Source of the DNA: a virus
Taxonomy: Duplodnaviria > Caudoviricetes
IMG/VR virus record: IMGVR_UViG_3300046330_000118
Location: 1-52,129 of that record
Reading direction: 5' to 3' (one strand)
DNA: 52,129 nt
Below, in pieces: positions 2,697 through 23,350 of the stretch (positions are counted from its first letter, which is position 1; every line of letters begins with the position of its first letter). A program made the translations under genes and the position numbers. The notes beneath the pieces are model-generated. The model was not told the DNA's origin and made no database searches. It worked only from the letters and a program-made list of their open reading frames with translations.

Positions 2697-2766
2697 GTGC
2701 CCCGGTCAAGAATCGAACTTGACTGCGCCAGAAAGGAGAGAAACGGGGCGCAACGCCAGTGGGGGC
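2697..2766 (-). ncRNA. tRNA-like RNA lacking a D stem, with an anti-SD pyrimidine loop instead of an anticodon loop
   Basis: T arm GTCAAG-TTCGATT-CTTGAC, acceptor-like GCCCC/GGGGC-A, stem TGCGCC/GGCGCA enclosing CCGTTTCTCTCCTTTCT. Confidence 0.6.
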
Positions 2767-2770
2767 TTGT

Positions 2771-2799
2771 GGGGTAGTTTTAAGTCATACCCCAGGACT
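2771..2799 (-). ncRNA. Compact H-type pseudoknot just 3' of the SSB-like gene
   Basis: AGTC-CT-GGGGTA-T-GACT-TAAAAC-TACCCC: S1 AGTC/GACT, S2 GGGGTA/TACCCC. Confidence 0.55.
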
Positions 2800-2810
2800 G
2801 CCCATTTAGA

Positions 2811-3284
2811 TTATGAAACCCAAATTTCGCTAGCCGACTTTACGTTGATTGGCTCAGCAAGCGATGAAGCAGTTGCAGTGCCAGCCTTGACGAAGCCTGC
2901 AACGTTGTTGTCTTCTCCGCCGTTCTGACCAGGAACAACGGTAACCTTTACGGCCACTGCCTTACCAGCCAACTCGTTTGGAGTCGGGACGGTGAACGAG
3001 CCTTCGCTCATGTCGTAGCCCAGAGCCGAGAAGAACGCCTGAGACTTCCAGAAGGCCTTGCCGGTGTATAGGGGGACGTAGGTGAAGATGCGACGGTTCT
3101 CAGCCTTGCCGTCCGAGATGCGGAACTGCAACTTGTACTGAGGCTTGCCGGCGTTCTCGCCTGACTTGACCTCGGTCAACTCGGCGTTGAAGACGGTTGC
3201 GTTGTAGGTTCCGGCAGGGATTGGTGCGTAGTCGCTGTTCTGCTGTAGGTCAGCAGGTGATAGATTGATTGTTAGGTTTGACAT
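2811..3284 (-). CDS. DUF669-like single-stranded DNA-binding protein
   Basis: PIPAGTYNATV...VKSG.NAGKPQYKLQFRI...ELAGKAVAVKV pattern; directly downstream of the AAA ATPase as in Sak4-SSB modules. Confidence 0.75.
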   Translation of the reverse strand: MSNLTINLSPADLQQNSDYAPIPAGTYNATVFNAELTEVKSGENAGKPQYKLQFRISDGKAENRRIFTYVPLYTGKAFWKSQAFFSALGYDMSEGSFTVPTPNELAGKAVAVKVTVVPGQNGGEDNNVAGFVKAGTATASSLAEPINVKSASEIWVS

Positions 3285-3288
3285 AAGT

Positions 3289-4017
3289 CTAGTTTCCTCC
3301 TAGTTTGTTGATGCCGTCAATGATTTTCTTGATGCTTGGGCCGTACAGCTTTGCTGGCAGTCCGAAGCGGTTTCCAGATACGAGACGCTCTGAAGACTGC
3401 AAGTTTAGCACACGATGTACAACTCCTGCTTCGTCAGTTTCTGCGCCCATGTATCCGATAATGTCAGGGATAGCTGGAAGCGTGTTCTTCGCTGACCCCG
3501 GCAACATTGGCACAGTCTTAACTGCACCAGTCTGGTCGTCCTTGTCGTCCTGAGCGTGTGCTACGAGGATTGATAGGAACGGAGCGGCGTGAAGTTTGCG
3601 GGCCAATAGGTTGATCCACTCCTTCAAGTCACCCCACTTACCGAACTTGTTGTTGCGGTTCTCTGGTTTCTCTCCAAAGAATTTCTCTGCCCGGTCCATC
3701 GCAACGCCGAGCGTGTCGATGATAACGGTCTTGTACTTGTGAGGCTGGTCGAGTAGCGCAGTAACTACGCTGTCGAACTTCTCGTGAGTGTCAACCTCAA
3801 CCACGTCGACATCTTTCCAGTCACGTGCAATTGCGGATGAGCCACCCTCGGTGTCAATTACTAGAACTGGTGAGAGTTCCTTGACTTCAGCGGCTGATGC
3901 AGCAAACCAAGACTTACCACGCTTTGGGTCGCCGTAGACCAGGATGGTCTTTGGCGTGTTTAGTTTGTCTGCTTTTGTAATGAACTGCTCAAAGGGCAGT
4001 TTTGGGAAATCGCTCAT
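3289..4017 (-). CDS. AAA-family ATPase (Sak4-like recombination/annealing protein)
   Basis: Walker A YGDPKRGKS, IDTEGG, Walker B VIIDT, DIIGYM. Confidence 0.85.
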   Translation of the reverse strand: MSDFPKLPFEQFITKADKLNTPKTILVYGDPKRGKSWFAASAAEVKELSPVLVIDTEGGSSAIARDWKDVDVVEVDTHEKFDSVVTALLDQPHKYKTVIIDTLGVAMDRAEKFFGEKPENRNNKFGKWGDLKEWINLLARKLHAAPFLSILVAHAQDDKDDQTGAVKTVPMLPGSAKNTLPAIPDIIGYMGAETDEAGVVHRVLNLQSSERLVSGNRFGLPAKLYGPSIKKIIDGINKLGGN

Positions 4018-4045
4018 TTTGTTTTCTCCTCCTTAAGAGATATTC

Positions 4046-4074
4046 AGTATAACATATTCAATTCTACTTGTCAA
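4046..4074 (-). promoter_or_regulatory. Sigma70/SigA-type promoter
   Basis: TTGACA-17 bp-TATACT; the spacer contains the repeated TTGAATATGTT motif. Confidence 0.85.
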
Positions 4075-4303
4075 GCGCTTTTTCAAGTTTCTTCAAATTG
4101 TTTGCAAATGCCATCATCTTTACGAAACGATACAGTCCAAACGTAATCATAATCGATACGATCGATAGCATAATCCACTTGAGTGCTTCTGAGTCGCTTT
4201 CCTTTGCGCCCCACAGCAGGATTACTGAGAAGCAGATGCGATAGATTAGCGCCATGCTTGATGCCAGTCGGACGGTTGTCTTGTTTACGTTTATGTTATT
4301 CAT
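4064..4303 (-). CDS. Small membrane protein (2 TM)
   Basis: Two hydrophobic stretches; start coupled to the upstream stop. Confidence 0.7.
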   Translation of the reverse strand: MNNINVNKTTVRLASSMALIYRICFSVILLWGAKESDSEALKWIMLSIVSIMITFGLYRFVKMMAFANNLKKLEKALDK

Positions 4304-5025
4304 TAGGCCTCCAAAACCTTGCAGTCGAAGCAGTGCTCTTCACGCTGGAACTCTTCGATATCTTTACCGGACTGAACCTCAGCCCAGATTCTTGCTAATC
4401 TGTCCCACATTGATTGTGCGAATGCTTCGTCATAAGGGAATGTCCAAGTCCACACGTCAGGGTCGTACGTGCCATCTCGGTTGATGAACACAAGAGAACA
4501 CGCATCGATCTCAGTGCCACCCTTGTTCAAGCCCCATGCGTAAATCTGCGCCTGCGCAAAGTATCGCTTGAGGGTGTAGGTTGACTCAGCGGCAACCTTA
4601 GTGTCCCTGGCCTCGCCTAGCACAACGGACTGCAACTGGCGTGACTTCTCACGCTTCGATGTCTTCCAGTCAACAAGGTGCTTGCCCTCAACTAGGGCCA
4701 GGTCTGGCTTTGACTTGATTGTACCGTAGCCGTCAAGTTCGCCCAGTACGATTGTCTGCTCAACACGAGCAGATGCAAACTCTGGAAACTCATCAAGGTC
4801 GACTGTCTCGATACGCGCCTCTAGGAACTCATGGATTGCAGTTCCTACCTTAGCGCCCATCCAGTATTTAAACTCGCCTGACGGCAGGCCTAGCAACTTC
4901 TTGGCTAAGTGGAACTCGCATGGGTCAGAGAAGTCTGATGCTCCTACTTTGCGTTGCGAGTCTCTTGCGGACTTTTGCTTGAAAAGCCCAAGCGCCATGT
5001 CCCTGATTCGTGAATCCGGAATCAT
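4303..5025 (-). CDS. PD-(D/E)XK (Cas4/RecB-like) exonuclease
   Basis: GTAIH, PD...DWKT, QAQIYAWG and C-terminal HCFDC. Confidence 0.85.
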   Translation of the reverse strand: MIPDSRIRDMALGLFKQKSARDSQRKVGASDFSDPCEFHLAKKLLGLPSGEFKYWMGAKVGTAIHEFLEARIETVDLDEFPEFASARVEQTIVLGELDGYGTIKSKPDLALVEGKHLVDWKTSKREKSRQLQSVVLGEARDTKVAAESTYTLKRYFAQAQIYAWGLNKGGTEIDACSLVFINRDGTYDPDVWTWTFPYDEAFAQSMWDRLARIWAEVQSGKDIEEFQREEHCFDCKVLEA

Positions 5026-5046
5026 TTTCTCTCCTTTAAATGTGTA

Positions 5047-5388
5047 TTAGAACAGTGTATCTGGTTTTCTGGAAAAGTCAATACCGCCCCACACTCCATA
5101 CTGCTCCTCGTTTGCAACAGCAAAGTCGTAGCACTGCTTTAGTATTGGGCAACCATAGCACAAGGCTTCGCAGTCGTCCTCGGTGAGGGCTGAGCGCCCA
5201 GGTCCGTTGCCACTGCGAGCCTCAAAACCCAGACCGTCATAGTCGGTATAAAAGTATGGGTTATACAGGCATGGGTAGTATGGTTCTTTCTCGATTGCCG
5301 AGAACAACGCTCGCCACTTCCCCATAGCCTCCGGCTTTATGCCGAAGTGCAATGGGTCGGTAGTCATAATGGTTCCGTCTCCGGCCAT
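5047..5388 (-). CDS. whiB: WhiB-family transcription factor
   Basis: C...CYGC-PILKQC and GVWGG signature. Confidence 0.9.
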   Translation of the reverse strand: MAGDGTIMTTDPLHFGIKPEAMGKWRALFSAIEKEPYYPCLYNPYFYTDYDGLGFEARSGNGPGRSALTEDDCEALCYGCPILKQCYDFAVANEEQYGVWGGIDFSRKPDTLF

Positions 5389-5930
5389 TACTCGGCTTCC
5401 TTTGCAAACGCTAGACGCGTAATCTCTTCAGAAGCCAGTAGAACAGCAATAGGGGCACTGGCGGTAATAATAACACCCATCCAAACTCGGTAGTCAGAAG
5501 AAGTCCCATCCCAGTAAGCAAGAGTGTGGCTTGCATTAGCCACAACAGAAATGATCGCAAACCCCGATAGTCCAAGTGTCGTCCTCCAAGTAGATTCACC
5601 GCGAGCCTTGAACACAATCAGCGAGACTGTATAGGCCAAGATTGCAGCGTCGATGAATAGTGCCGGTAGCCATTGGATAACCTTTGGGATTCCAGTCCAC
5701 TCTGAGACAGAGTAGATACCACTGAATGATACAGCGAATGATGAGACCATTAGTATGCCCACCAGCACAACAGCGAGTAGCAGAACCGGTATAGAGTCTG
5801 GGTTGATTCGAGCCTTCTTTACAGCAGGCTTTTCTTCCTTTACGATAATCTCTTCTAGCATCTCTTCCTCTGTGAACTGGTGCTTAATTGGGTTGTAGAT
5901 AGGTTCAAACCCGACCACTTCATTCCTCAT
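5388..5930 (-). CDS. DUF2637-like multi-pass membrane protein
   Basis: SFAVSF...WLPALFIDAAIL...SVVANASH...APIAVLL pattern, about 4 TM segments. Confidence 0.7.
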   Translation of the reverse strand: MRNEVVGFEPIYNPIKHQFTEEEMLEEIIVKEEKPAVKKARINPDSIPVLLLAVVLVGILMVSSFAVSFSGIYSVSEWTGIPKVIQWLPALFIDAAILAYTVSLIVFKARGESTWRTTLGLSGFAIISVVANASHTLAYWDGTSSDYRVWMGVIITASAPIAVLLASEEITRLAFAKEAE

Positions 5931-6201
5931 TCCTCAAAATTCCTAACAGTTTATTCACCATCTCTGGCTCCCACAGTGTGCCTTTGTTGTATTGCTCAAT
6001 CATTGCAATCGCCTTTTCAACGCCTTGCTTGCGCTTTTCGTTCTCGATGTGCTGTGCATACTCTAGAGGCGAGAACAGCGGTGGGCTCATCCTATTCTCG
6101 ACCACCCAACTATTGTAGTCCTGAATAAGACTAATGTCAATGGTTGTCGAGAATTCAATCATCTCGCCAGTTCGTGGGTCTACAATTTCGTAATCGCTCA
6201 C
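5920..6201 (-). CDS. Hypothetical protein
   Basis: Coupled ORF in the leftward operon; VDPRTGE motif. Confidence 0.75.
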   Translation of the reverse strand: MSDYEIVDPRTGEMIEFSTTIDISLIQDYNSWVVENRMSPPLFSPLEYAQHIENEKRKQGVEKAIAMIEQYNKGTLWEPEMVNKLLGILRNEE

Positions 6202-6446
6202 TTGTGGTTCTCTCCTAGTAGGAATGAGTGGAGCGACTTAATCTTGTCGATGCGGAAGCCGGACCAAATCTTGATGTCAGTCTCGACGATAGGGGCTTGT
6301 AGCAAACCCTTAGCCTTAAACTCTTCCAACTTGTCTGGGTGCTCTGTTAGGTCGTATGACTCATACTTGATTCCGAGTCGATCGAGTTCCTTCTTTGTCA
6401 TCATACACTGCACACAACTTGGGGTGCTCCACACCTTGATGTCCAT
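6198..6446 (-). CDS. nrdH: NrdH-like glutaredoxin
   Basis: CVQC active site, QAPIV and WSGFR motifs. Confidence 0.9.
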   Translation of the reverse strand: MDIKVWSTPSCVQCMMTKKELDRLGIKYESYDLTEHPDKLEEFKAKGLLQAPIVETDIKIWSGFRIDKIKSLHSFLLGENHK

Positions 6447-6447
6447 A

Positions 6448-6618
6448 TTATTCCTCTACTTGTCCGTATGTGAAAATTTGCTTGTGTAGTTCTCGGTGCA
6501 ACTTGTCCAACTCTTTGCAGGCTTTCCATTGCCCAGCCTCTGTATAAGCAGACTCGGCCGCTTTCATCGAGGTGAAGAGCATTTCAACCTGTTGCCTTGT
6601 TAGTTCAATCTCAACCAT
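6448..6618 (-). CDS. Hypothetical protein (56 aa, not in ORF track)
   Basis: Hand translation MVEIELTRQQVEMLF...YGQVEE*; fills the operon gap. Confidence 0.7.
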   Translation of the reverse strand: MVEIELTRQQVEMLFTSMKAAESAYTEAGQWKACKELDKLHRELHKQIFTYGQVEE

Positions 6619-6695
6619 TGGCCTGCTTCATCTCCTCTAGCAATTCGTCATACGCAATCAATACCTGCACCTCAACTAGTAGTGCTAGTTCTGCT

Positions 6696-6872
6696 TTAGT
6701 CAAAATAAAGTTCCAATTCCATATCTTGCCACGCGTCAAAATCTGCGTCACACCTGCAACCGTGGCTTATGCCACACTCGTCGCAACCGTGGTTCTCACA
6801 GTTGCACTCATCTGCGCAATCGTCTGCCTCACAGCAGTCCGGGGCCCAGACATCCTTAGGTTCTAGTAGCAT
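6696..6872 (-). CDS. Acidic Cys-rich mini-protein (58 aa, not in ORF track)
   Basis: MLLEPKDVWAPDCCEADDCADECNCENHGCDECGISHGCRCDADFDAWQDMELELYFD; strong RBS AAGGAGG. Confidence 0.75.
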   Translation of the reverse strand: MLLEPKDVWAPDCCEADDCADECNCENHGCDECGISHGCRCDADFDAWQDMELELYFD

Positions 6873-6969
6873 TGTCCTCCTTGTGGCAATCGCAATCGCA
6901 GATGTAATTTGGTATCTCTAGTATGCACTGTTTGTGGTGACTTGTCAAGCACCAACCCAGCCTAGCCAA
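6856..6969 (-). CDS. Putative Cys/His-rich mini-protein (37 aa)
   Basis: TTG start overlapping the helicase end: MARLGWCLTSHHKQCILEIPNYICDCDCHKEDNATRT. Confidence 0.5.
   Translation of the reverse strand: MARLGWCLTSHHKQCILEIPNYICDCDCHKEDNATRT
6920..6948 (-). promoter_or_regulatory. Sigma70/SigA-type promoter
   Basis: TTGACA-17 bp-CATACT. Confidence 0.65.
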
Positions 6970-8356: not shown

Positions 8357-8519
8357 GATACTGTCTCCAATAGTTTTCGTGCTGTGCTTTGTAGTTTGGC
8401 ATATCGCTTCTTGTTTTTGTGCTGTCACCATCTTTGTCTAGCATGGCAACGATAACAACAATAAAAGGAGTGATTAGTGCTAGGAAGAACGCAAGCCAGA
8501 TAATGCTAGATGCTTGCAA
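8346..8519 (-). CDS. Small single-TM protein (57 aa, not in ORF track)
   Basis: IIWLAFFLALITPFIVVIVAML hydrophobic helix; fills the gap between coupled genes. Confidence 0.6.
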   Translation of the reverse strand: MQASSIIWLAFFLALITPFIVVIVAMLDKDGDSTKTRSDMPNYKAQHENYWRQYLDQ

Positions 8520-8982
8520 GAACGTCTGTTACTGCGTCGTTCTGATACAACTGTCCGACTACGAATGCGTCACCGCTTACGTGTTCAAACTCGCCGGCTT
8601 CATCAATAGAAACAACCGCCTCACCGGAAACTCGGGCAAAGCCGAAGTTCTGTAGCACGACTCGGTAAGTGCCGTCGTCTTGCCTCGCGATAGTCCATCC
8701 CGCTGATGTCGAACGCGTTACTAGTTCGCTTGTCTCTGCGAGGATGTCTTGAACAGTCTTGTAGTTGCTCGTGCCGATAGTCTTGCCTAACTGGGTGCGT
8801 GGCACTCCAGCCTCAGCGGCCAAGCGTAGCGCAATGTCACGCTTACGCTTGATAACCGCCAACTGCTCGTTCAACTGCTTCTTGAGTTCGGCCTCCAGCG
8901 TTGCCTTGGCTAGCACATACGCTGAATGCTCCTCTACGAGGGTCTCAAGGGCTTGTCTAGCGTGTGGTGTTAGTCGAGTCAT
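8506..8982 (-). CDS. Putative HTH DNA-binding protein
   Basis: ALRLAAEAGVPRTQLGKTIGTSNYKTVQDIL resembles an HTH. Confidence 0.6.
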   Translation of the reverse strand: MTRLTPHARQALETLVEEHSAYVLAKATLEAELKKQLNEQLAVIKRKRDIALRLAAEAGVPRTQLGKTIGTSNYKTVQDILAETSELVTRSTSAGWTIARQDDGTYRVVLQNFGFARVSGEAVVSIDEAGEFEHVSGDAFVVGQLYQNDAVTDVLASI

Positions 8983-9265
8983 TGACTACCTCACTTTCTC
9001 CTGCCGAGATTACGTCGTGGACTACGCCATCGATCAATCGGCCAATGGTTAGCGAGGTTAGGTCTGCGGTTAGCAACTCTAGTTCTCGTGGGTCTACCGG
9101 CTTCTCAACAACAACCTCAACCACCTGAGTGTATGCGTCTAGCGGATACCACTTGTAGTCTGAGATGTTTGGCGTATCTGATAGGAAACGCTTTTCGCTG
9201 CGTAGGCTGTCGACAACGTTAGAGATTTCACTAACGTCACCTGTAATAATGTATTCGAGTTTCAT
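8957..9265 (-). CDS. Hypothetical protein
   Basis: RBS AAGGAGGAA; coupled ORF. Confidence 0.75.
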   Translation of the reverse strand: MKLEYIITGDVSEISNVVDSLRSEKRFLSDTPNISDYKWYPLDAYTQVVEVVVEKPVDPRELELLTADLTSLTIGRLIDGVVHDVISAGESEVVNDSTNTTR

Positions 9266-9301
9266 ATTCCTCCTTAGGAATGTTAGGGATTTATTGTATC
9301 A

Positions 9302-10577: not shown

Positions 10578-10779
10578 TTTTCTCCAGATAATCCAATCTT
10601 GTTGCCAGTCGGCTCACTTTGCGGAGTGACTGGTTGATACTAGTGTATATCTCTCGCTTGGCTTTGTCAAGCCAATCTGGGTCTGATGCAAAGAAAGTTC
10701 CAGCAACCGCGTCCCCGAGGACTGGCATCTCCATCAAATCTAGTTCTTCACATAGCGCGGTGATAATGTCTTCGCGCAT
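10567..10779 (-). CDS. Hypothetical protein
   Basis: Start reassigned to MREDIIT. Confidence 0.65.
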   Translation of the reverse strand: MREDIITALCEELDLMEMPVLGDAVAGTFFASDPDWLDKAKREIYTSINQSLRKVSRLATRLDYLEKNDL

Positions 10780-12108: not shown

Positions 12109-13197
12109 TTAGTCCCAGTAAGAACGACGGCTAAAACGAGAGCCGATAGTCTGGGACCGATTGAACTGATACTCATCCTCAGAAGCCGGAGTGACCTCCT
12201 CAGGGTCTTGGGTGTAACACATATTCTTGTCCGACCAGTAACGGTTGTAACGAGCCGTCTCGTAGTCCTCGTGAAGAGTGTCATAAGTTCCCATATAAGT
12301 GCCGTCGAAGTCATAGTAGAAACCCTCGTGAAGCACAAAGCCCTCTAAGTAATCCTCGAAGCCCTCGTCATACTCCTCCCACAAGCCACTGTATGGGTCG
12401 TCATAGCCCCAAGCAGTGCTTTGCTGGGTGAACTTGCCACCGGCAGTCGCAGAGCGGTAAGAGGCGTAAGAGGATGCTGACAACTTCTGCTCGAACTCAG
12501 GGTCAAGGTCAGGCAAAGTAGACATCTCATCAATGCGACCATCGCGAACAGCAAGCAGTGTGCGCTCCTTCACGTCCATAATGAAGTTATACTTGAGGCC
12601 AACAGAATCCAAGGCATTAGTCAGGATAGACTCGGTAGAGGCAAACACGAACGAGCCGTCAGCCAACTGAGCAACAGTCAAAGGACTGTGGCTGATACGA
12701 GCAACATTGAGAACACCCTTGTTAGACTCGTCAAGCCAAGCAACAGCCGCATCGCCGTCAAGCATAGAGAACTTGTCAGTAGAAGAGAACTGCTGAAGAA
12801 TAGCAGGAATAACAGCAGTATCAACATCTGGCAACTGCTTAGACTTAGACAAATGCGCACGAACAAGGTCGTGGTTATAAATGACACCATTGTGAACAAG
12901 GCTAATAGACGAATCAGGCGACTGAACCGGGTGATTGTTACGGTTATCACGAATAGAGCCATGCGTTGCAAGGCGAGTGTGCAAAATGACACTAGAAGCC
13001 TGCTTAGGCATAGACTTGAGAGTTAGGTTGCTACCAGAAACATCCTGCTTATAGAAGCCAGAACCCTGAGCATACTGGAAAGCATAACCAGAAGCCTGAT
13101 TGCCACGCTTCTCCAGTCCGGTAAGCAAAGCGTGAGCGAGTTTACGAGCATTTACTTTAGAGCCTGTCGAGAGGCTGAATCCACCGATTCCACACAT
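12109..13197 (-). CDS. Class-II (Ntn) glutamine amidotransferase
   Basis: N-terminal MCGIGG (Cys2 nucleophile), RG..ASG, HTRLATHG, NNHP, HNGVI, DTA; start reassigned to 13197. Confidence 0.9.
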   Translation of the reverse strand: MCGIGGFSLSTGSKVNARKLAHALLTGLEKRGNQASGYAFQYAQGSGFYKQDVSGSNLTLKSMPKQASSVILHTRLATHGSIRDNRNNHPVQSPDSSISLVHNGVIYNHDLVRAHLSKSKQLPDVDTAVIPAILQQFSSTDKFSMLDGDAAVAWLDESNKGVLNVARISHSPLTVAQLADGSFVFASTESILTNALDSVGLKYNFIMDVKERTLLAVRDGRIDEMSTLPDLDPEFEQKLSASSYASYRSATAGGKFTQQSTAWGYDDPYSGLWEEYDEGFEDYLEGFVLHEGFYYDFDGTYMGTYDTLHEDYETARYNRYWSDKNMCYTQDPEEVTPASEDEYQFNRSQTIGSRFSRRSYWD

Positions 13198-13251
13198 AAT
13201 ATCTAATCCATTCCGACCCATCCGGGTCAATTGCGTTTTCCAACTACTTAT

Positions 13252-13280
13252 AGTTTACGGGAAAACATCCGTCGTGTCAA
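13252..13280 (-). promoter_or_regulatory. Sigma70/SigA-type early promoter
   Basis: TTGACA-17 bp-TAAACT. Confidence 0.8.
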
Positions 13281-13343
13281 CAACATTCGCAAACTTTTTT
13301 GAGAATTTTTCCCCCTTGAGGGATTTTCTTGACATCTGTATAT

Positions 13344-13372
13344 AGTCTAATGGTTGCCGGCTTGGTTGTCAA
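13344..13372 (-). promoter_or_regulatory. Second tandem sigma70/SigA-type early promoter
   Basis: TTGACA-17 bp-TAGACT. Confidence 0.8.
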
Positions 13373-13585
13373 ATCGAAAACGCAAAAAATCCGGGCAAAT
13401 TCAAAAAAGGTCGCATCCTTATAAGGGTCGGGGTGGGTTCTAAAATTTAGAAATAGTGAGTGGGCGAGTAAAGAGTTATTGAAATGAGATATAGAAATGA
13501 AATATTGAACCGCGGCGGTCAGCCCGTCGTGGGATCACGAGAGACACGGGCTTCCCGCGCGGGGGGTTTGGCTCAGATATAGGAG

Positions 13586-13708
13586 ATGATAAATGACAAC
13601 AAGTCACTAAATATATTATTCGGAATGTTATTCGTAATCTTAACGCTGCTATGCGTAGTAGCGCCGATAATGCATTCAATAGAATGCGGTTCAAAATTAT
13701 ATTGTTAG
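13586..13708 (+). CDS. Putative 40-aa single-TM peptide (not in ORF track)
   Basis: MINDNKSLNILFGMLFVILTLLCVVAPIMHSIECGSKLYC; AGGAG abuts the ATG, so the start is uncertain. Confidence 0.45.
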   Translation: MINDNKSLNILFGMLFVILTLLCVVAPIMHSIECGSKLYC

Positions 13709-13715
13709 GAAAAGA

Positions 13716-15218
13716 ATGTCCAACTTAGTTGAATTCAGAGCATCAGCTGTCAAGGCGATGGCGAAGTACGAAGAGATCTGGAACAGCAGATTCAACGAAA
13801 ACGGCGAGCGCCGTCAGATGACAAACGAAGAGTTCAAAGAGATCTTCAGCATTCTACCAGGTTACAAGCTAAACGATGGAGTGTTCTACAGCGTTCGACA
13901 CATTATCACCGGATGGACTCCAGAGACATTGGCTGAACCGTCAGAGAATATCGCAGAGCTTGTTGAGTATCTCAAAAACAACCGGATCAAAGCTACTGTT
14001 TGGTTCGCAACTATGAAAGCAGCAGCAGACAAGATCGGACTCATTTACAATGTAAACGTTCGCAACGGTAACATTATCTTCAGTCAAGATGAGACATCGA
14101 TGATTGCAGGCAGCGAGCTTCTAGAAGACATAAACTTCTATTACATGCTAAAGCAGCTGAGCGTTATTGAGATTACTCGCGAGAACCTAATTCGTGGTAT
14201 TTCAACATACAACGACTGGCTAGCGTCATACAGCCGTCAGCTTCGCAATAACTCAATTCCAGAAGCCAAAAACACTGGAATCGAGAAGGTGTTTGAGCAG
14301 GCACCAAAGCCAGAAGCTGAGTTGATCCTAGCTCAGCTTGACGAAGCAATCAAGTTGCTACCAAGCAACGGTCTAACAGCCAGAACTTGGGGCTTCGAGA
14401 TTGAGGTTCCAGACGCCAAGAACGTTACACCAAGATTCAATTCAGGAATCGAAAAGGGCGAAGACGGAAGTCTTCGTAGCTACGAGGGTAACGACGAATG
14501 CGAGTGCGGATGTTCAGACTGTGTATTTCACAGCTGCGACTGTGACAACTGCACAGACTACAACGACGACCCAAGCCACTGTGGAGACAGTGACTGCCAG
14601 ACAGCAGACATGGCAGAGTTCCGAACCGTTGGTGGAGTCCAGCGAGCACACCACAACGGAATGTATCAGCTATGCAAGGAACTGAACGAGAACAATGCAG
14701 AGATGAATGACACTGCAGGTACTCACATTCACGTATATGCTCAGGACTTGACAACCCACCAGGTTGGTCAAGTAATGGCAATCTACAAGTACATTGAAGG
14801 TATTGTTAGCCCGATTGCTGGACGTTACAACGTGAACTACGCAGGTAAGGTACGTACTGACCACGTAGCAGCAGCGTTGAAGCGTAAAGATCCAAAGCTA
14901 AACAACGTCAAGCAGGTTGCAGTGAACGTAATGCACTTGCTAGGCGGACGCGGAACAATCGAGTTCCGACAGATGGACTGTAACTTGAACGCAAACAAGA
15001 TTACATTCTGGGCTTGGCTAGTTCGTGGACTTGTCGAGACTGCAAAGCGTGGAGCATCGCTCAAAGACTTCAAAAAGGTCCAGGACTTGAACGACGTTAT
15101 TGATGTTCTCGGTAAGTTTGAGTTCTTCATCCAGAACGAGAACCCAGGAGATGTAATCTTCGGAAGCAAGTCAGACCAGATGTTGGTCAAGACCCAGATG
15201 CACAAGCGTATCGACTAG
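13716..15218 (+). CDS. Putative amidoligase (COOH-NH2 ligase, glutamine-synthetase-like fold) with N-terminal extension and Cys-rich insert
   Basis: RTWGFEIEV, EDGSL, AEF, TAGTHIHV, AVN, TIEFRQ motifs; lies next to a GAT-II gene as in known phage amidoligase loci. Confidence 0.85.
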   Translation: MSNLVEFRASAVKAMAKYEEIWNSRFNENGERRQMTNEEFKEIFSILPGYKLNDGVFYSVRHIITGWTPETLAEPSENIAELVEYLKNNRIKATVWFATMKAAADKIGLIYNVNVRNGNIIFSQDETSMIAGSELLEDINFYYMLKQLSVIEITRENLIRGISTYNDWLASYSRQLRNNSIPEAKNTGIEKVFEQAPKPEAELILAQLDEAIKLLPSNGLTARTWGFEIEVPDAKNVTPRFNSGIEKGEDGSLRSYEGNDECECGCSDCVFHSCDCDNCTDYNDDPSHCGDSDCQTADMAEFRTVGGVQRAHHNGMYQLCKELNENNAEMNDTAGTHIHVYAQDLTTHQVGQVMAIYKYIEGIVSPIAGRYNVNYAGKVRTDHVAAALKRKDPKLNNVKQVAVNVMHLLGGRGTIEFRQMDCNLNANKITFWAWLVRGLVETAKRGASLKDFKKVQDLNDVIDVLGKFEFFIQNENPGDVIFGSKSDQMLVKTQMHKRID

Positions 15219-17106: not shown

Positions 17107-17274
17107 ATGGGCTCTATTGTTGACGATCCTACCCCTAAGGTTGAGGATTCTGCTACCCCGGTGAATGCTGAGCAGCTTGCTGATATGTTGTATCTTGTCT
17201 TTGAGGCCGTGAAGGACCTTGAGGCTTCGTTTATTGAGTTGCGTAAGGAGCTCACGGATGAGTCGCGCCCTTAA
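17107..17274 (+). CDS. Hypothetical protein (55 aa, not in ORF track)
   Basis: MGSIVDDPTPKV...ELTDESRP; RBS GGAGG. Confidence 0.7.
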   Translation: MGSIVDDPTPKVEDSATPVNAEQLADMLYLVFEAVKDLEASFIELRKELTDESRP

Positions 17275-17767
17275 TCTTCTTGACGAGTCTCTGATTCGCC
17301 TGGCGGCTTCTGGTAAGTCTGGTCAGGAGCTTGAGCGTTCTACTGGTATCCCTGCCGCTCAGGCTGTGCAGCATGTCAAGGATTTGATGGCCCGCCGTGA
17401 TGTTTGGTCTGAGGTTGAGCAGCGTCAGCTTTTGCTGTATCAGCTTAATGAGCTGAAGGATTCGCTGACTGAGGCTGCGTTCCAGCTGAAGGACCCTGAG
17501 TCTGCACGTCTATTGCTTAAGACTCTGGAGCTTATTGGTAAGCGTTTGGATTCTCAGAAGACGCAGCTGGATGAGCAGGTGCTTAAGCTGTCGCAGTATC
17601 AGCAGGGTGTTCTTCTTCGCGCTATGGATGCGGCTCTTTCTTTTGCTAAGAAGTCTCTGCAGGAGCAGTACCCCGATGTTGACTCCACTCGCTTGGACGC
17701 ACTGGTTGCTGAGGGCTTGATGAAGGCCAAGAGCGAACTGCAAGAGGAGACGCAATCTTTTGATTGA
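17258..17767 (+). CDS. Putative terminase small subunit
   Basis: Helical protein with HTH-like N-terminus directly upstream of TerL; start MSRALN after AAGGAG. Confidence 0.65.
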   Translation: MSRALNLLDESLIRLAASGKSGQELERSTGIPAAQAVQHVKDLMARRDVWSEVEQRQLLLYQLNELKDSLTEAAFQLKDPESARLLLKTLELIGKRLDSQKTQLDEQVLKLSQYQQGVLLRAMDAALSFAKKSLQEQYPDVDSTRLDALVAEGLMKAKSELQEETQSFD

Positions 17768-19271
17768 TAATGTCATTGATGGGGTTATTAAGGATCTGCA
17801 GCAGCGGTCTAAGAACTCTCTTTATTTAACTGACCCTGCCGCCTGGGTGCATGATGTGCTGGGTAAGCATGTTTGGTCTAAGCAGCGTGAGGTTCTTGAG
17901 TCTCTGGTTGACAACACGCACACGGCTGTGGTTAGCTGTAACGGTATGGGCAAGTCTGCGATTGCGGGCATGGCTGGGGCCTGGTGGGTATCTGTGCATG
18001 ACCCGTACGAGGTTGCGCTTATTGCGTCGGCTCCGACGTACCCTCAGATTGCTCGTGTGCTCTTCCGTGAGCTTAAAGATAACCACAAGGCTGCGGCGAT
18101 TCGCGGCTTTAGCCTACCCGGGCACATCAACCAGTCGGAGGAGTGGAAGCTCGACGACGAGTACGGCACACTGATTGGCTTTGGCCGTCGACCTGCCGAC
18201 ACTGACATTGTTTCCGCCTTCCAGGGTATCCACCGTCGTTTTGTGATGGTGGTTCTGGATGAGGCTGGCGGTATCCCTCAGGACTTGTATACGGCTGCTG
18301 AAGCGGTTACTACGACTGCGGACTCGCGAGTGCTTGCTATTGGTAACCCGGACCGCAGAGGAACCGAATTCCACCGTATTTTCCGTGAGGATGAGACTTG
18401 GAATAAGATTAAGGTTTCTGCATTTGATACGCCAAACTTTACGGGCGAGGATATTCCAGAGGAGCTGAAGCCGCTTTTGATTCAGCCGGGCTGGGTTGAC
18501 CGTCAGAAGGTTGCTTGGGGTACTGATTCTGCCCGTTATAAGTCTAAGATTTTGGCCGAGTTTCCCGAGGAAGACGACACTACGTTTTTCAGCCAGACTG
18601 CTATCGATTCTGCTATTGACCTTGACGTTGTTGAGGATATGGAGATCCCGGTTGTGCTCGGTGTCGACGTTGCACGTTTCGGTGATGACGATTCTGTAAT
18701 TTACACTTGCAGGGGTGGCCGTTTGCGTCACCACGCTACATGGACTAAGGCTAATGCTGTTGAGTCGGCTAACCGCATCCATGAGGCTGCTATTGCTTTT
18801 GGAGCTAGGGAGGTTCGAGTTGACGGTACTGGTTTGGGTGCGCCAATTGTTGACATGCTTGCTAATATGTGTAATGATTCCTATGTGGTTATTAGCGTTG
18901 TTGGTTCTGCTGCTAGCCCTGATAACACGAGATGGCTTAATGCTCGTGCGGCGGGCTATGATTCGATGCGTGAGCGGATGATTATGGGGAATTTGGACAT
19001 CGACATGATGGACAAGGACCTTATTGACGAAATGATGTCGATTAAGTACAAGTTTTCTACTAAGGGTTCAATTCAGATTGAATCTAAAGATGATATGCGC
19101 TCTAGGGGCATGAAGTCCCCTGACCGCCTAGATGCGGCGATGTATGCGTCTTTGGACATGTCTAAGTTGATGAACTCTGCATACCCGACTGGCAAGCCTG
19201 GCGACAAGATGTATATGGACGCTAACGATCTTGATGTAAAGTTTCCGTTTTACTCGGACTGGACATGGTAG
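17760..19271 (+). CDS. terL: Terminase large subunit
   Basis: WSKQ, SCNGMGKS Walker A, VLDEA Walker B, IGNP, GVDVARFGDD, VDGTGLG, SPDRLDA. Confidence 0.95.
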   Translation: MIDNVIDGVIKDLQQRSKNSLYLTDPAAWVHDVLGKHVWSKQREVLESLVDNTHTAVVSCNGMGKSAIAGMAGAWWVSVHDPYEVALIASAPTYPQIARVLFRELKDNHKAAAIRGFSLPGHINQSEEWKLDDEYGTLIGFGRRPADTDIVSAFQGIHRRFVMVVLDEAGGIPQDLYTAAEAVTTTADSRVLAIGNPDRRGTEFHRIFREDETWNKIKVSAFDTPNFTGEDIPEELKPLLIQPGWVDRQKVAWGTDSARYKSKILAEFPEEDDTTFFSQTAIDSAIDLDVVEDMEIPVVLGVDVARFGDDDSVIYTCRGGRLRHHATWTKANAVESANRIHEAAIAFGAREVRVDGTGLGAPIVDMLANMCNDSYVVISVVGSAASPDNTRWLNARAAGYDSMRERMIMGNLDIDMMDKDLIDEMMSIKYKFSTKGSIQIESKDDMRSRGMKSPDRLDAAMYASLDMSKLMNSAYPTGKPGDKMYMDANDLDVKFPFYSDWTW

Positions 19272-19304
19272 AATTATAGTATATTTTAACTTTTTGGAGA
19301 TATT

Positions 19305-20705
19305 TTGAGCAATTTTGACAGTTTTTTTGACGGTGAAGCAGAGCTTCAGGATCTCCGCGAGTCTTATTCACGCATGGCTGAGGTTATGCTGAGCATTGAG
19401 GATGACGGCTGGTCACTTTTGGGGCTTGAGAACCCTCACAGCAACTCTTTCACTCTTGAGGCGCTTCACGCCCTTTCTGAGCGTCTTATTGAGAAAACTG
19501 ACGGTAATCCGCTTCTAAAGCGTGGTTTGGGCCTTCGCACGAGCTATATCTTTGGCCGTGGCGTAGATATTCAGAATGTCTCTTCTAAGCGTGTTCAGTC
19601 ACTAATTGACGACCCTCAGAACCAGGCTGCCCTGTTCTCGAACGACGCTATGTGCGTCAACGAACGGTCGAACTTTGCCTCTGGCCAGTTCTTCATTTTG
19701 GGGGATAACGCCACCAAAAAGCTTCAAAGAATTCCTTTTAACGAGATTACTGGCTGGGTTACCGACCCTGACGACGTTGAAACCGTCCGTTACATCCGCC
19801 GTTCATGGACTCGCAAGAACATTAACGGCCAGGATGAAGCCAAGAACGAGTGGTACCCGATCGACACGCTCGGAACTACAACTCGCGTTGACTACATTCA
19901 GAAGCAGCCGGTCAACTACAACAAGACCATCTTCCCGTTCATCGTAAACAAGCGCTCAGGAGCCGTCTGGGGCGTTCCTGACAGCTTTGCAGCGTATCCT
20001 TGGGCTCACGCCTACAATGAGTATTTGAAGGACGGCTCACGCATCCTGAAGGCTCTGAGCATGTTCGCTTGGCAGCTTAAGTCGAAGACTAAGAGTGGCG
20101 CACAGGCAGCAGCTGCTACAATTGCTACACCAAGTAGTTCTGGCTCAACCGCAATTATGGGTGCTGACATGGAGCTTTCAGCTCTTCCGCGCACAAGTAA
20201 CTCTGTAGATCTAGGTAATGGAAAGCCACTTGCTGCTATGGTAGCCAGTGCGCTGGAAGTTTCTGTGATTGCTCTTATGAGCGACCCAGGAACTTCCGGT
20301 GCATATGGTGTCGCACAGACTCTAGACGTACCGACCACTAAGGCCATGCAGGCCCGCCAGAAGCTTTGGGAAAACTACCTTAAGCGTGTGATGGCTTTCT
20401 TCGGTGACACCAAGGCAACTATCAAGTGGCCTAAGATGGAAACCGAGTCAAGCTTCCGCCAGCTTCAGTCTTTGGCTTTGGCTAAGGAGTCGATGGCTAT
20501 TTGGCCTGACGAGTTCCGCAACGCTGTGCTAGATGAGCTTGATGTTGTCGCAATGCGCAACGGCTCACCAGAGGACAGCACGCAAGACAACCCTGACAAC
20601 AGCGGCTCAGTAGTTCCGTCTCAGGGCAACTCTGGCGCGGTAGGCTCGATGCAGGATAACTCAAACGACCTGCGTGATATGGATAACACTCCTGCAACTA
20701 ACTAA
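19305..20705 (+). CDS. Portal protein
   Basis: Follows TerL; 466 aa; NPLLKRG..LR, WGVPD patterns. Confidence 0.85.
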   Translation: MSNFDSFFDGEAELQDLRESYSRMAEVMLSIEDDGWSLLGLENPHSNSFTLEALHALSERLIEKTDGNPLLKRGLGLRTSYIFGRGVDIQNVSSKRVQSLIDDPQNQAALFSNDAMCVNERSNFASGQFFILGDNATKKLQRIPFNEITGWVTDPDDVETVRYIRRSWTRKNINGQDEAKNEWYPIDTLGTTTRVDYIQKQPVNYNKTIFPFIVNKRSGAVWGVPDSFAAYPWAHAYNEYLKDGSRILKALSMFAWQLKSKTKSGAQAAAATIATPSSSGSTAIMGADMELSALPRTSNSVDLGNGKPLAAMVASALEVSVIALMSDPGTSGAYGVAQTLDVPTTKAMQARQKLWENYLKRVMAFFGDTKATIKWPKMETESSFRQLQSLALAKESMAIWPDEFRNAVLDELDVVAMRNGSPEDSTQDNPDNSGSVVPSQGNSGAVGSMQDNSNDLRDMDNTPATN

Positions 20706-20750
20706 TGTGGTATCATTACTTATAGAATTATTAATACCTATGGAGTATCT

Positions 20751-21749
20751 ATGACTGTGCAGCTAAACGAAAACCTGGCGTTTTCAGCACCTTCTGGCAA
20801 GGGCAACAAGTGGCGCATCAAGGTTATCGAGGCTGGCTGGGGTAGCTCAGGCTACTACGCAGCTGACATGCTTGCTGAGTTTGGCCCTCGAACCTTTAAG
20901 GCTGGAACTAAGGTATTTATGAACCACCCTGGCGCTAGCGAGTCTAACGACCGCCCAGAGCGTGACGTTCACCAGTTGGCCGGAAAGCTAACCAGTGACG
21001 CAGTATTCCAGGAGAATGGTCTATTCGCAGAAGTCGAATTTTACTCACACTACGCACCAATCATCCGAGAGATGGCTGGCGACGTAGGTTTGTCAATTCG
21101 TGCAACTGGCTCCGTCAAGATTGGCGAAGCTGAGGGGCGAGAAGGTCCTATCGTCGAATCGCTATCGGATGATGATCCAATGACGAGCGTTGATGTGGTA
21201 ACCGTAGCAGGAGCGGGCGGTAAGTTTGTTTCGCTGCTCGAAAGCTACAAAATCAAAGAGGAAGCTACAATCGTAGCCGAATCTTCTATGGAAGGAAATA
21301 GAATGTCTATTACTAAGGAAGAGTTTGATTCAGCTATCGCTGAGTTGAAGAACACCCTTGTTGAGGCACTCAGCCCTCTTAAGGAGTCAGTAATGGCTCT
21401 TGTTGAGGCAGCTACTCCTGCTGACGACGAGAAGACTGAAGACGAGGCTACCGAAGAGGTAGCAATCGACCCAGTTGAAGTTGCTGAGAAGTTCAACGAG
21501 TCAGGTCTACCAAAGATTGCGCTTACCCGCGTAGCTGAGGCCCTGAAATCAGAAACCAACACCAAGACCGTTGATGAACTAATCGAGTCTGAGAAGGCAT
21601 ACGCTGACTCAATTCGCGAGAGCATCAAGGCAACCGCTCCAGCTACTGCTGAGGTTGTTGGCGTTGTCCACGAGGCTAACAAGGCCGCAACCACCGCTGG
21701 TAACGACGACTACGATTCAGTAATCGCTCGCCTAACTGGCAAGAACTAA
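20751..21749 (+). CDS. Capsid maturation protease / scaffold fusion
   Basis: GWGSSGYY, NHP, GLSI, SVDVV..AGAGG protease motifs; acidic helical C-terminus. Confidence 0.85.
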   Translation: MTVQLNENLAFSAPSGKGNKWRIKVIEAGWGSSGYYAADMLAEFGPRTFKAGTKVFMNHPGASESNDRPERDVHQLAGKLTSDAVFQENGLFAEVEFYSHYAPIIREMAGDVGLSIRATGSVKIGEAEGREGPIVESLSDDDPMTSVDVVTVAGAGGKFVSLLESYKIKEEATIVAESSMEGNRMSITKEEFDSAIAELKNTLVEALSPLKESVMALVEAATPADDEKTEDEATEEVAIDPVEVAEKFNESGLPKIALTRVAEALKSETNTKTVDELIESEKAYADSIRESIKATAPATAEVVGVVHEANKAATTAGNDDYDSVIARLTGKN

Positions 21750-21762
21750 GGAAAGGCACATC

Positions 21763-22089
21763 ATGGCTCTTAACGAGATCTATGCAGTAGCTAACAGCCT
21801 ATCATTCCCTGTAGCGGACACCGTTGTATCTGGTGACCTTGTACAGGTTGGACAGGTAGTTGGTATTGCTGAGCACGACGCGAAGGAAAAGGAAGATGGC
21901 AACACCTACGCTACTCTTAAGCTTACCGGCGCATTCAAACTAGAGACTGCAGACACCGTTTCTGTTGGCGCAAAGGTATACGTTAGCTCAGCTGGCGCAG
22001 TTACCACCACCGCTACCAGCAACAAGTTGATCGGTCACGCTATCAAGGCTGGAACTGGCTACGTTGTAGTCCGTTTGCAGCAGAACTAA
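21763..22089 (+). CDS. DUF2190-like capsid decoration/cement protein
   Basis: VVSGDLVQVG..VGIA...G.F.L...VGAKVY; lies between protease and capsid genes. Confidence 0.8.
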   Translation: MALNEIYAVANSLSFPVADTVVSGDLVQVGQVVGIAEHDAKEKEDGNTYATLKLTGAFKLETADTVSVGAKVYVSSAGAVTTTATSNKLIGHAIKAGTGYVVVRLQQN

Positions 22090-22102
22090 GGGACGGTAGA
22101 AA

Positions 22103-23212
22103 ATGACTGAAAACATTACTTCACGCCAGGTCGAAGCCGCTAAGCTCCTCGAAGGTGCTATCCGCGGTGACCGCCAGGACAAGCTAAAGCTACAGGAAGG
22201 TATCTCTACCTCTGACCTGCCAGTTCAGCTTGCACCAACCATCAACAAGATCATGCTTGCAAACTATGCAGAGCAGCCAAAGGTTTGGGACGCTTTCGCA
22301 ACCCGCCTAGTTGTTGATGACTTCCGCCCAACCCAGTACATGAACCTTGCTTACGAAGACGACGGTCTTGACAACGAAGGCGACAAGTTCCGCGCTGGCT
22401 CACTACCTACCGTTGGCGAGTACGACGAGTACCCAACTGCTGGCTGGTTCTCATTCTCTGAGGCTGAGTTCGCAGTGAAGAAGGCCGGTTCACGTATCCG
22501 CTTCTCATGGGAATCAATCATCAACGACGGCAACATCTCAATCCTTGAGCGTCTACCTCTCGAGCTTGCTCGCAAGGCAGCTGGCAAGGAAGACGAGGAA
22601 GTTACCAAGCAGCTAGTTACCTCTTCAGGTCTAAACACTGCTAACTTCAAGTCGGGTAACCAGAACCTACTAGCAGGCAACCCTGTGCTCTCACTAGAGT
22701 CACTAGAGGCTGCAATCACTGCTGCTAACGTTCAGACCTACAACGGCAACTCAATCACCCCACTTAGCCGCTTCGTTCTAGTTGTCCCACAGGCACTTGA
22801 GCTAACCGCTAAGAAGATCCTTGCTGTGCAGCAGGTTCGTACCGAGGTTACCTCTGGTGACACCGTTACTTCTGTTGTTGCAGGCAACCCAATCGCTTCT
22901 TCGATTCAGATCGTTGTAAACCCTTGGATTAAGAAGATCTACAACAACTCAAACGCTGACAAGTTCTGGTTCCTACTTCCAGTTCCTTCAGACACCATCA
23001 ACCCAGGTCTAGTACTTGGCTTCCTGCGCGGACACGAGGCTCCTGAGCTTCGCGTCAAGGCAAACGGTGGCTTGTACCTAGGCGGCGGTGCAGTACCTGC
23101 TCGCGAAGGTTCGTTCGACAACGACGACTTCGAGATGCGTATTCGCCACATCGCAACCGGTGGCTTCTTGCTACCAACTGGTACCATTGCATCAACCGGT
23201 GCTGGCGCTTAA
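22103..23212 (+). CDS. Major capsid protein (HK97 fold)
   Basis: STSDLP, V.E.DEY, K.G.RIRFSWE.IIND, LVVP.ALE; strongly biased codons; followed by a terminator. Confidence 0.9.
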   Translation: MTENITSRQVEAAKLLEGAIRGDRQDKLKLQEGISTSDLPVQLAPTINKIMLANYAEQPKVWDAFATRLVVDDFRPTQYMNLAYEDDGLDNEGDKFRAGSLPTVGEYDEYPTAGWFSFSEAEFAVKKAGSRIRFSWESIINDGNISILERLPLELARKAAGKEDEEVTKQLVTSSGLNTANFKSGNQNLLAGNPVLSLESLEAAITAANVQTYNGNSITPLSRFVLVVPQALELTAKKILAVQQVRTEVTSGDTVTSVVAGNPIASSIQIVVNPWIKKIYNNSNADKFWFLLPVPSDTINPGLVLGFLRGHEAPELRVKANGGLYLGGGAVPAREGSFDNDDFEMRIRHIATGGFLLPTGTIASTGAGA

Positions 23213-23232
23213 TAGCCCAGTTCCCGAATAGC

Positions 23233-23268
23233 GAGAACCCTCACCTTCGGGTGGGGGTTTTCTGCTTT
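23233..23268 (+). terminator. Rho-independent terminator after the capsid gene
   Basis: GAACCCTCACC-TTCG-GGTGGGGGTTT plus T-rich tail. Confidence 0.9.
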
Positions 23269-23284
23269 CTGGTACAATAGATGT

Positions 23285-23350
23285 ATCACGTTCCTCCTTC
23301 GTGAATGATTCTCGCCCTGTTGAGCTTTTGCTCCGGGGCGAGTTTCTTTT
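23285..23350 (+). ncRNA. Candidate sRNA of about 65 nt with an anti-Shine-Dalgarno hairpin loop and its own terminator
   Basis: -10 TACAAT 23273-23278; hairpin TCACG-[TTCCTCCTT]-CGTGA; terminator CTCGCCCTG..GAGC-TTTT-GCTC-CGGGGCGAG-TTTCTTTT. Confidence 0.65.

Follow-up and report, generated by a model that had tools for sequence, protein, structure and literature searches.

Two structured RNAs of a phage genome with copies of the 16S rRNA tail in their loops: candidate antisense RNAs against early ribosome-binding sites

Why would a phage carry two unrelated structured RNAs, each with a copy of the 3′ tail of 16S rRNA? The question is raised by the IMG/VR virus record IMGVR_UViG_3300046330_000118, the whole of which (52,129 bp, referred to below as the window) was analysed. 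The first element, an RNA of ~110 nucleotides (nt) composed of a 5′ pseudoknot and a tRNA-like structure (TLS), lies on the minus strand at 2697–2806. The second, a small RNA composed of a hairpin and a terminator, lies on the plus strand at 23281–23352. It is close to certain that both RNAs are conserved, structured, located on the strand of the surrounding genes, and universal in the lineage. Each of them, as predicted from sequence and fold, presents the 16S 3′-tail sequence, the anti-Shine-Dalgarno (anti-SD) region, in a single-stranded loop. An earlier note on this DNA had proposed two unrelated RNA scaffolds exposing a mimic of the 16S tail and had tentatively assigned them a switch from early to late translation. 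The scaffolds are confirmed by covariation and conservation, with the amendment that element 1 extends to 2806 and has a 5′ pseudoknot that was missed earlier. As to function, the TLS loop changes in step with the primase ribosome-binding site, which points to a co-transcribed antisense repressor with a preferred target, similar to the C4 RNA of phages P1 and P7; the hairpin small RNA looks generic.

The TLS element scores 116.7 bits with its covariance model (R1). It opens with the conserved motif AAUGGGCA (2799–2806), in which the GGG is invariant and the rest nearly so (alignment A1; 61 distinct upstream regions). This is followed by an H-type pseudoknot (2771–2799) with stems AGUC/GACU (S1) and GGGGUA/UACCCC (S2), supported by covariation. 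The 5′ strand of the acceptor stem (2760–2766) pairs with 2699–2705, leaving a discriminator A at 2698; this stem too is supported by covariation. The position of the D arm is taken by an 8-nt linker, CUGGCGUU (2752–2759), with an invariant GG in alignment A1. A long arm (2724–2752), closed by the 6-bp stem UGCGCC/GGCGCA, bears the anti-SD loop CCGUUUCUCUCCUUUCU (17 nt, 2730–2746), identified as a copy of the 16S tail from loop statistics and the host tail sequence. The T arm UCAAG-UUCGAUU-CUUGA (2706–2722), with the loop UUCGAUU, completes the structure.

The alignment of relatives supports this fold throughout. Paired cells make up 78–93% in the pseudoknot helices 1–3 (both-side changes in 9 of 10 pairs), 85.1% in the 7-bp acceptor stem, helix 4 (7 of 7 pairs, the two innermost, 6 and 7, being weak and often unpaired), and 100% in the T arm, helix 7, where GTTC.A is invariant; the long-arm helix 5 has both-side changes in 7 of 7 pairs. 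Over 72 distinct rows, 86.6% of cells are paired vs. 62.7% for shuffles and 35–40% for slid partners. Both-side changes occur in 27 of 29 pairs, and none of 500 shuffles reaches the observed covariation score. The G-U pairs fit the minus strand only, therefore it is the minus-strand RNA that selection sees. The fold of the single window sequence is not better than shuffles (z −0.71).

Model R1, built from 21 sequences, was used to search 84 sources: the window, 3 SSB loci, and 80 primase loci (59–81% identity). It gives 81 strong matches of 42.8–117.7 bits, namely the window, all 3 SSB loci, and 77 of the 80 primase loci; in the three negative loci (L088, L125, L154), the sequence ahead of the primase match is no longer than 90 nt. 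The loops of the family range from 11 to 36 nt (median 15) and are ~90% pyrimidine. Among 69 distinct loop sequences, CUCC is found in 67, CUCCUUU in 53, and CCUCC in 31, some loops carrying two or three copies of the motif. The distance from the TLS to the primase start codon varies from 13 to 745 nt in 62 distinct loci and is at most 41 nt in 24 of them.

Known RNA classes did not account for the element. In this region ARAGORN calls only the neighboring tRNA-Asn and reports no transfer-messenger RNA (tmRNA), the TLS being without a reading frame; Rfam gives nothing at 2697–2806, either at the gathering threshold or with E values up to 10. A blastn search of both elements against GenBank phages gave no match, and neither RNA was found in 41 genomes of the Aquiluna genus. 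In those genomes R1 has weak matches (26–36 bits) in 13 of 41, of which the three inspected are ordinary tRNA-Arg or tRNA-Glu genes. The IMG/VR pattern AATGGGCANNCCTGAG turned out to be non-specific, a real TLS being present in 19 of the 79 loci then searched. In the 61 distinct regions upstream of AAUGGGCA, a conserved −35 box is absent and the −10 box is ambiguous.

Cultured relatives of the window are distant (~30–41% amino-acid identity) and include Arthrobacter phage Amigo and its kin, Clavibacter phage CN1A, Curtobacterium phages, and ‘Stenotrophomonas virus Jojan60’. Several of them have peculiar structures at the same junction. In Amigo (NC_041949; L202, 2045–2161) the same pseudoknot follows the SSB gene and stands directly before an annotated tRNA-Gly(ccc), a feature that ARAGORN reports as tRNA-??? 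with a two-base anticodon. The presence of a pseudoknot and an aberrant tRNA at this junction suggests that a tRNA-derived oddity there is older than the anti-SD loop. The pseudoknot itself may, once RNase P has cut, shield the SSB message at its 3′ end. In CN1A the SSB-primase spacer (L205, 2420–2480) holds a minimal tRNA-like helix that has the acceptor stem, the T arm, and an encoded ACCA but lacks the long arm. Jojan60 has a structured stretch of ~290 nt upstream of primase (L203, 2105–2395) that starts with GGGGAGC and has a T arm and then GCUCCACCA at its end; its ends look tmRNA-like or large-tRNA-like, and ARAGORN makes no call there. Some relatives carry a second tRNA-like element, GGAAUGGUGUCGAUUG...GUUCGAUUCUCUGC...CCAC (L085 ~2385–2470; L088 and L089 upstream of primase; L039 ~4150–4230), which sits between the TLS and primase or after the capsid gene. 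In two loci of the Aquiluna genus (L446, L448) the leaders of tRNA-Arg(TCT) open with AAUGGGC, followed by a hairpin ~40 nt before the tRNA, echoing the 5′ motif of the TLS. The echo may reflect a bias of the R1 search, or the TLS may derive from a tRNA gene captured with its leader.

The second element stands between the capsid gene and a tail-fibre gene, on the plus strand. The predicted terminator of the capsid gene (23233–23262) is followed by an extended −10 box, TGgTACAAT (23270–23278), read from the sequence, and by the small RNA itself, recognized by covariation and with 70.9 bits by its model R2. Hairpin 1, UCACG-UUCCUCCUU-CGUGA (23286–23304), is assigned from the fold and exposes its loop at 23291–23299, which is supported by loop statistics. 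Hairpin 2, CCCUGUUGAGC...GCUCCGGGG (23311–23350), has a UU bulge and is followed by a U-run. A further −10 box, TATAAT (23357–23362), is seen in the window and in relatives and lies 8 nt before the ATG at 23371 of a collagen-like tail-fibre gene (23371–24096), which is classed as leaderless by this spacing.

The predicted fold of element 2 has −30.2 kcal/mol (z −6.66). In 45 distinct rows, 96.6% of cells are paired vs. 72.8% for shuffles (97–99% in helices 2–3), and both-side changes are found in 16 of 19 pairs; at one position the pair U-G is more frequent than any other. Within hairpin 2, the inner segment CCCYGUUGAG...CUCCRGGG has a conserved sequence. Model R2 was built from 33 sequences and applied to the window and 80 capsid loci, with matches in the window and 58 of the 80. 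The negative loci are cut short or contain inserted genes, and the element is back in whole records. In 47 distinct loci, a −10 box, judged by eye, precedes hairpin 1 by a few nt. In all 47 of them hairpin 2 is followed by a −10 box, then 6–13 nt (mostly 9), then a start codon, which places the element directly before a leaderless tail-fibre gene in 47 of 47. The loop contains CUCC in 46 of these loci, CCUCC in 37, and CCUCCUU in 34. Rfam on 23150–23450 with E values up to 10 has only weak matches, on the capsid terminator, and the one weak R2 match in the 41 Aquiluna-genus genomes is a terminator. The cultured phage CN1A has the same module after its capsid gene, with the loop UUUCCUCCUUC, and Jojan60 a similar one, with the loop UUUCCUCCUUUC. 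Two further features of the locus were seen in relatives. Between the capsid terminator and element 2 there is a variable insertion slot (loci L016–L081) for NrdH-like redoxins, lipoprotein-like, and other small genes, all of which have a −10 promoter of their own and a good SD. A GU-rich tract, UGUGUUGUGUG, separates hairpins 1 and 2 in many relatives; the window has none (A3/A4 alignment).

In whole records each model is positive in 21 of 25; all records of at least 90% completeness (15 of 15) are among these and contain a single copy of each element. The earlier note had suggested co-occurrence across related genomes as a check. The two RNAs do co-occur in all 15 near-complete relatives; this is uninformative on a functional link between them, because both are universal in the lineage.

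Do the loops indeed copy the ribosome of the host? The host is probably an Aquiluna-type freshwater member of the Microbacteriaceae, because the WhiB-like gene of the window and the closest homologues of its ThyX point there; the latter are found in metagenome-assembled genomes (MAGs) of Aquiluna and other Microbacteriaceae (63–68% identity). The five MAGs nearest by ThyX have no 16S gene, and the tail was read from genus-level Aquiluna genomes. In four of four loci, from four genomes, the 16S gene ends with GGAUCACCUCCUUUCU, the tail being CACCUCCUUUCU in all four. Both loops copy parts of CCUCCUUUCU, the end of 16S rRNA in this likely host genus. The motif CCTCCTT as such is not enriched in the window (8 matches vs. 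6.2 expected). Just one of the 8 copies, the small-RNA loop, is on the sense strand of its arm; the other 7 lie opposite local genes, whose sense strand reads AAGGAGG, with 6 of them on the plus strand inside the minus-strand arm, and at least 4 of these 6 are the SD of called genes. The argument for mimicry is drawn from conservation in relatives and not from motif counts.

The likely partners of the loops can be sought among the ribosome-binding sites. In the window, the primase site AGAAAGGAGG (2408–2417, minus strand) has 9 nt complementary to the TLS loop, and the exonuclease site AAAGGAGAGAAA (5026–5037, minus strand) is its 12-nt complement. The site AAGGAGGAA (9267–9275, minus strand) of the early gene 8957–9265 is a 9-nt complement of the small-RNA loop.

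Comparison between genomes singles out primase. In 62 distinct pairs, the TLS loop is predicted to pair with the primase site of its own genome at −14.41 kcal/mol vs. −12.75 kcal/mol for the sites of other genomes, and the longest Watson-Crick match is 7.85 vs. 6.83 nt, neither difference being reached in 5000 permutations. With one representative per 80%-identity cluster (n = 46) the values are −14.45 vs. −12.79 kcal/mol and 7.67 vs. 6.62 nt (0/10,000 permutations, a test that corrects for relatedness only partly). A control with the SSB site in the same loci has no own-genome advantage (n = 37; 5312/10,000 permutations). In 42 of 62 genomes the match of the primase site with the TLS loop of the same genome is longer than its match with the 16S tail; examples are the loop CUUCUUCUCC with the site GGAGAAGAAG, and the loop CCCUUUCUC with the unusual site GAGAAAGGG. 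When 25 gene families common to 10 genomes are compared, both RNAs have their best mean predicted pairing at the primase site (−14.4 kcal/mol with the TLS and −12.7 kcal/mol with the small RNA). For the TLS the exonuclease site comes next, and its own-genome advantage in the 10 genomes has p ~0.004; by eye, the 12-nt match of the window is not conserved in L168–L180. The worst mean pairing in the 10 genomes falls to the capsid, portal, tape-measure, and leaderless genes, and of the ten best predicted targets per genome 5–10 are early-arm genes.

A comparison of loop-to-site energies by arm, which the earlier note had proposed, thus comes out in its favor: both loops are predicted to pair best with strong-SD early sites and worst with late genes. 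Its further idea that the RNAs mask strong-SD messages as a class fares less evenly. The predicted preference for early sites agrees with it; the flanks of the TLS loop follow the primase site instead, as the longer matches show. Since these flanks track the site of the own genome, a dedicated antisense target fits better than a pure decoy of the ribosome tail. On these sequence comparisons, the primase message is the best-supported candidate target of the TLS.

The genes of the two arms differ in the way in which they would recruit ribosomes. In the window AGGAG precedes 14 of 35 early-arm vs. 1 of 38 late-arm genes, and GGAGG 9 of 35 vs. 3 of 38. The median predicted pairing with the 16S tail is −7.5 (early) vs. 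−6.0 kcal/mol (late) at the first start codon (p = 0.069) and −9.2 vs. −6.3 kcal/mol at the best start within 30 codons (p = 5e-5). Among 11 genomes, which include the near-identical pair G004 and G005, the early arm has the stronger sites (p < 0.05) in 10 by the best start and in 5 by the first start; G012 has no early/late difference, and G008 has none in motif counts. Leaderless-type starts, defined as TAnAAT followed after 5–10 nt by a start codon, occur in 38 of 440 late vs. 2 of 395 early genes of the 11 genomes and in 4 of 37 vs. 0 of 36 in the window, against a background of 12 among 1401 ATG triplets. Besides the tail-fibre gene after element 2, the start scan gives a second tail-fibre gene (24713–25723, plus strand; TAGAAT, 9 nt, ATG) and a late gene (28985–29389, plus strand; TAGAAT, 6 nt, ATG). 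The asymmetry between strong early and weak late sites and the leaderless late genes, both put forward in the earlier note, are therefore real and recur in relatives. The weak sites that it quoted for the capsid, major tail, and peptidase/endolysin genes are correct, and so is its own counterpoint that the late-arm genes at 17107 and 17258 have good SDs.

A mechanism that would join these data can be proposed. The TLS would be transcribed within an early SSB-TLS-(tRNA)-primase message, as gene order and strand suggest, and would be cut out by tRNA-processing enzymes to accumulate as a stable RNA. The freed TLS would pair with the purine-rich initiation region of the primase mRNA and, more weakly, with other strong-SD early mRNAs, for example the exonuclease message. 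As a result, the synthesis of replication proteins would be shut off after a delay, as the C4 RNA of P1/P7 does to its downstream gene. In the late arm, the small RNA would be made from its own predicted −10 promoter and ended by its own terminator, and its near-constant CCUCCUU loop could pair with any AAGGAGG site. Late genes would evade masking through weak SD or leaderless starts. We put at about even the chances that both RNAs are antisense RNAs that occlude ribosome-binding sites, with primase as the main target of the TLS and the weak-SD and leaderless late genes escaping.

Several points weigh against this proposal. The advantage of the own genome is small, ~1 nt or 1.7 kcal/mol, and the primase site is never the single best one, ranking 2–38 of ~75 sites for the TLS and 0–19 for the small RNA. 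The loop of the latter co-varies weakly with the primase site (n = 19; energy 1808/20,000, match length 594/20,000). The TLS loops of L106 and of the L116 group (L116–118) lack CUCC. In the window the gap between the TLS and the primase start amounts to 293 nt plus a tRNA, so pairing would need to act in trans. The parts given to RNase P and RNase Z are read from the shape of the RNA alone. Metatranscriptome RNA-seq covers part of 21500–24500 in 16 runs; the contigs from 4 runs end within the capsid gene and none extends over 23146–23500, which permits no verdict on expression. The gene and start-codon calls behind the comparison of the arms are our own crude calls.

The question arises whether the same RNAs could do something wider, or something simpler. 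In the global model favored by the earlier note, an RNA-only switch, both RNAs, the early tRNA-shaped one and the late hairpin, would be abundant and mask the SD sites of early phage and possibly host messages, so that ribosomes would move to the leaderless and weak-SD virion genes and the host would be shut off. The identity of the loops with the 16S tail of the host genus, the near-constant loop of the small RNA with little target-specific co-variation, its constant place before a leaderless gene, and the recurrence of the SD asymmetry and of late-arm leaderless starts in relatives all speak for such a switch, which fits the architecture of the genome and is possible. The TLS loop flanks, however, track the primase site and not the invariant 16S tail, G012 and G008 show little asymmetry, and weak late SDs can be explained otherwise, e.g., by translational coupling; we regard the global switch as unlikely. 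The imitation of the 16S 3′ end could alternatively serve to bind or divert a protein, be it a defence nuclease, a 3′-end maturation enzyme, or a ribosomal or initiation factor, with the tRNA shape as nothing more than a stable scaffold. Toxins that cut the anti-SD region exist. The loops copy CUCCUUU(C), reaching past the core anti-SD into the terminal UUUCU, and the repeated motif in some TLS loops would suit a decoy; yet the context of helix 45 is not copied, and a TLS loop that varies together with the primase site would not be expected if the host target is invariant. The protein decoy seems to us clearly improbable.

It may also be asked whether the loops need any partner. The two RNAs might be cis-acting processing and stability elements, the pseudoknot and TLS marking RNase P/Z cuts and protecting the ends of the SSB and primase mRNAs, and element 2 being a terminator module between the capsid and tail genes. 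The pseudoknot kept by Amigo before its aberrant tRNA, the armless mini-helix of CN1A at the same junction, and the terminator-like hairpin 2 are in line with this. It is nonetheless rather improbable, as the loops keep their motif although the stems around them have diverged strongly, termination does not need hairpin 1, which has a promoter of its own, and the co-variation of the loop with the primase site is left unexplained. It is hardly credible that element 1 is an attP core or a tRNA, whether decoding or decayed to a pseudogene, or that the motifs are the SD of small genes on the opposite strand, even if the T arm and acceptor stem are canonical and the loops read AAGGAG on the other strand. 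The D arm is absent, the loop has 11–36 nt, tRNA finders make no call, and the acceptor and T stems co-vary between phages without matching one host tRNA. The G-U pairs suit the sense strand only, the stems that would hold a start codon on the other strand differ among relatives, and no integrase was seen among 30 scanned proteins, a part of the proteome. The antisense proposal with primase as the main target of the TLS is thus the reading that we prefer.

The genomic setting is as follows. The window is a complete 52 kb phage genome (CheckV completeness 100%) with a G+C content of ~50%. The leftward, early arm runs from ~13230 to 1 and then from 52129 to 47935, wrapping round the ends of the record, and encodes primase, an SSB-like protein, Sak4, a Cas4-type exonuclease, a WhiB-like regulator, helicase, ThyX, dUTPase, and a DNA polymerase exonuclease subunit. 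The rightward, late arm (13716–48133) encodes terminase, portal, protease, capsid, tail fibres, major tail protein, tape measure, and peptidase/endolysin. Around element 1, on the minus strand, are the SSB-like gene (2811–3284), which ends just upstream of the TLS in a gene order shared with Amigo, the tRNA-Asn(GTT) gene called by ARAGORN between the TLS and primase (2435–2507), and the DNA primase gene (208–2403; phrog_10514, E 7.7e-166). A non-coding stretch of ~190 nt (2508–2696, minus strand) separates the TLS from tRNA-Asn. Relatives are encoded in 134 (capsid) and 115 (primase) IMG/VR stretches.

Some other features of the genome were also recorded. Six promoter-like sites of the early arm, on the minus strand, combine a perfect TTGACA −35 box with 17-nt spacing (4046–4074, 6112–6140, 6920–6948, 10642–10670, 13252–13280, and 13344–13372). 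Late-arm promoters resemble −10-only sites. The total number of promoter-like sites in the window is not above shuffles. The divergent region between the arms (12109–15218) is flanked by a glutamine amidotransferase-like gene on the minus strand and an amidoligase-like gene on the plus strand. An HNH endonuclease gene (24317–24691, plus strand) lies among the tail-fibre genes.

In general, these data add two new structured RNA families in an abundant freshwater actinobacterial phage lineage. The TLS family would represent a natural tRNA scaffold that displays an antisense loop, and the co-variation of its loop with the primase site offers a concrete target open to mutation. The presence of element 2 in cultured phages brings experiments within reach. 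If the wider model were true, an RNA mimic of the 16S tail would re-route translation to leaderless mRNAs; no prior report of such a mimic was found in the main texts of the papers searched.

How do the two RNAs compare with known systems? The TLS shares with canonical tRNA the 7-bp acceptor stem, the T arm with UUCGAUU, and the discriminator base, and it has no encoded CCA, as is also the case for the neighboring tRNA-Asn. As in phage tRNA clusters, it occupies the phage tRNA slot between the SSB and primase genes. Unlike a tRNA, it lacks a D arm, its ‘anticodon’ loop has 11–36 nt vs. 7 nt, and neither ARAGORN nor Rfam RF00005 calls it. MazF and the phage-encoded bS21 illustrate that loss or masking of the anti-SD reprograms translation to leaderless mRNAs. 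The shared principle is that an altered SD/anti-SD interaction changes the choice of mRNA; there a nuclease or a protein modifies the ribosome, whereas in the phage the mRNAs would be masked by a copy of the tail made of RNA.

The closest parallels are two antisense RNAs. The C4 RNA of P1/P7 shares a transcript with its target and is cut out of it by host RNase P; the loops of C4 cover the downstream ribosome-binding site (PMC5320573, PMC12197685). Like C4, the TLS is encoded upstream of its putative target on the same strand, and its loop is complementary to a downstream ribosome-binding site. C4 is released by RNase P, and a similar cutting of the TLS is suggested by the shape of its acceptor stem and T arm. 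Unlike C4, the TLS mimics a full L-shaped tRNA, as seen in its acceptor stem, T loop, and GG linker, and has in addition a single long pyrimidine loop and a 5′ pseudoknot; it has no match in 2300–2950 up to E 10 to Rfam, which includes a C4 family, its host is actinobacterial, and its proposed target is primase vs. icd/ant for C4. The actinobacterial small RNA 6C (B11) is independent of a chaperone, targets G-rich ribosome-binding sites with the C-rich loops of its hairpins, and represses dnaB by pairing of these loops with its ribosome-binding site (PMC6486639). Like 6C, element 2 has a putative promoter of its own, an exposed C-rich loop, and an intrinsic terminator, as judged by sequence and covariation, and it is predicted to pair with ribosome-binding sites. 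Unlike 6C, it has a single CCUCCUU loop that is an exact copy of the 16S tail and not a C-run, as well as a conserved bulged terminator hairpin; it has no Rfam match, is encoded by a phage, and keeps a fixed site before a leaderless gene.

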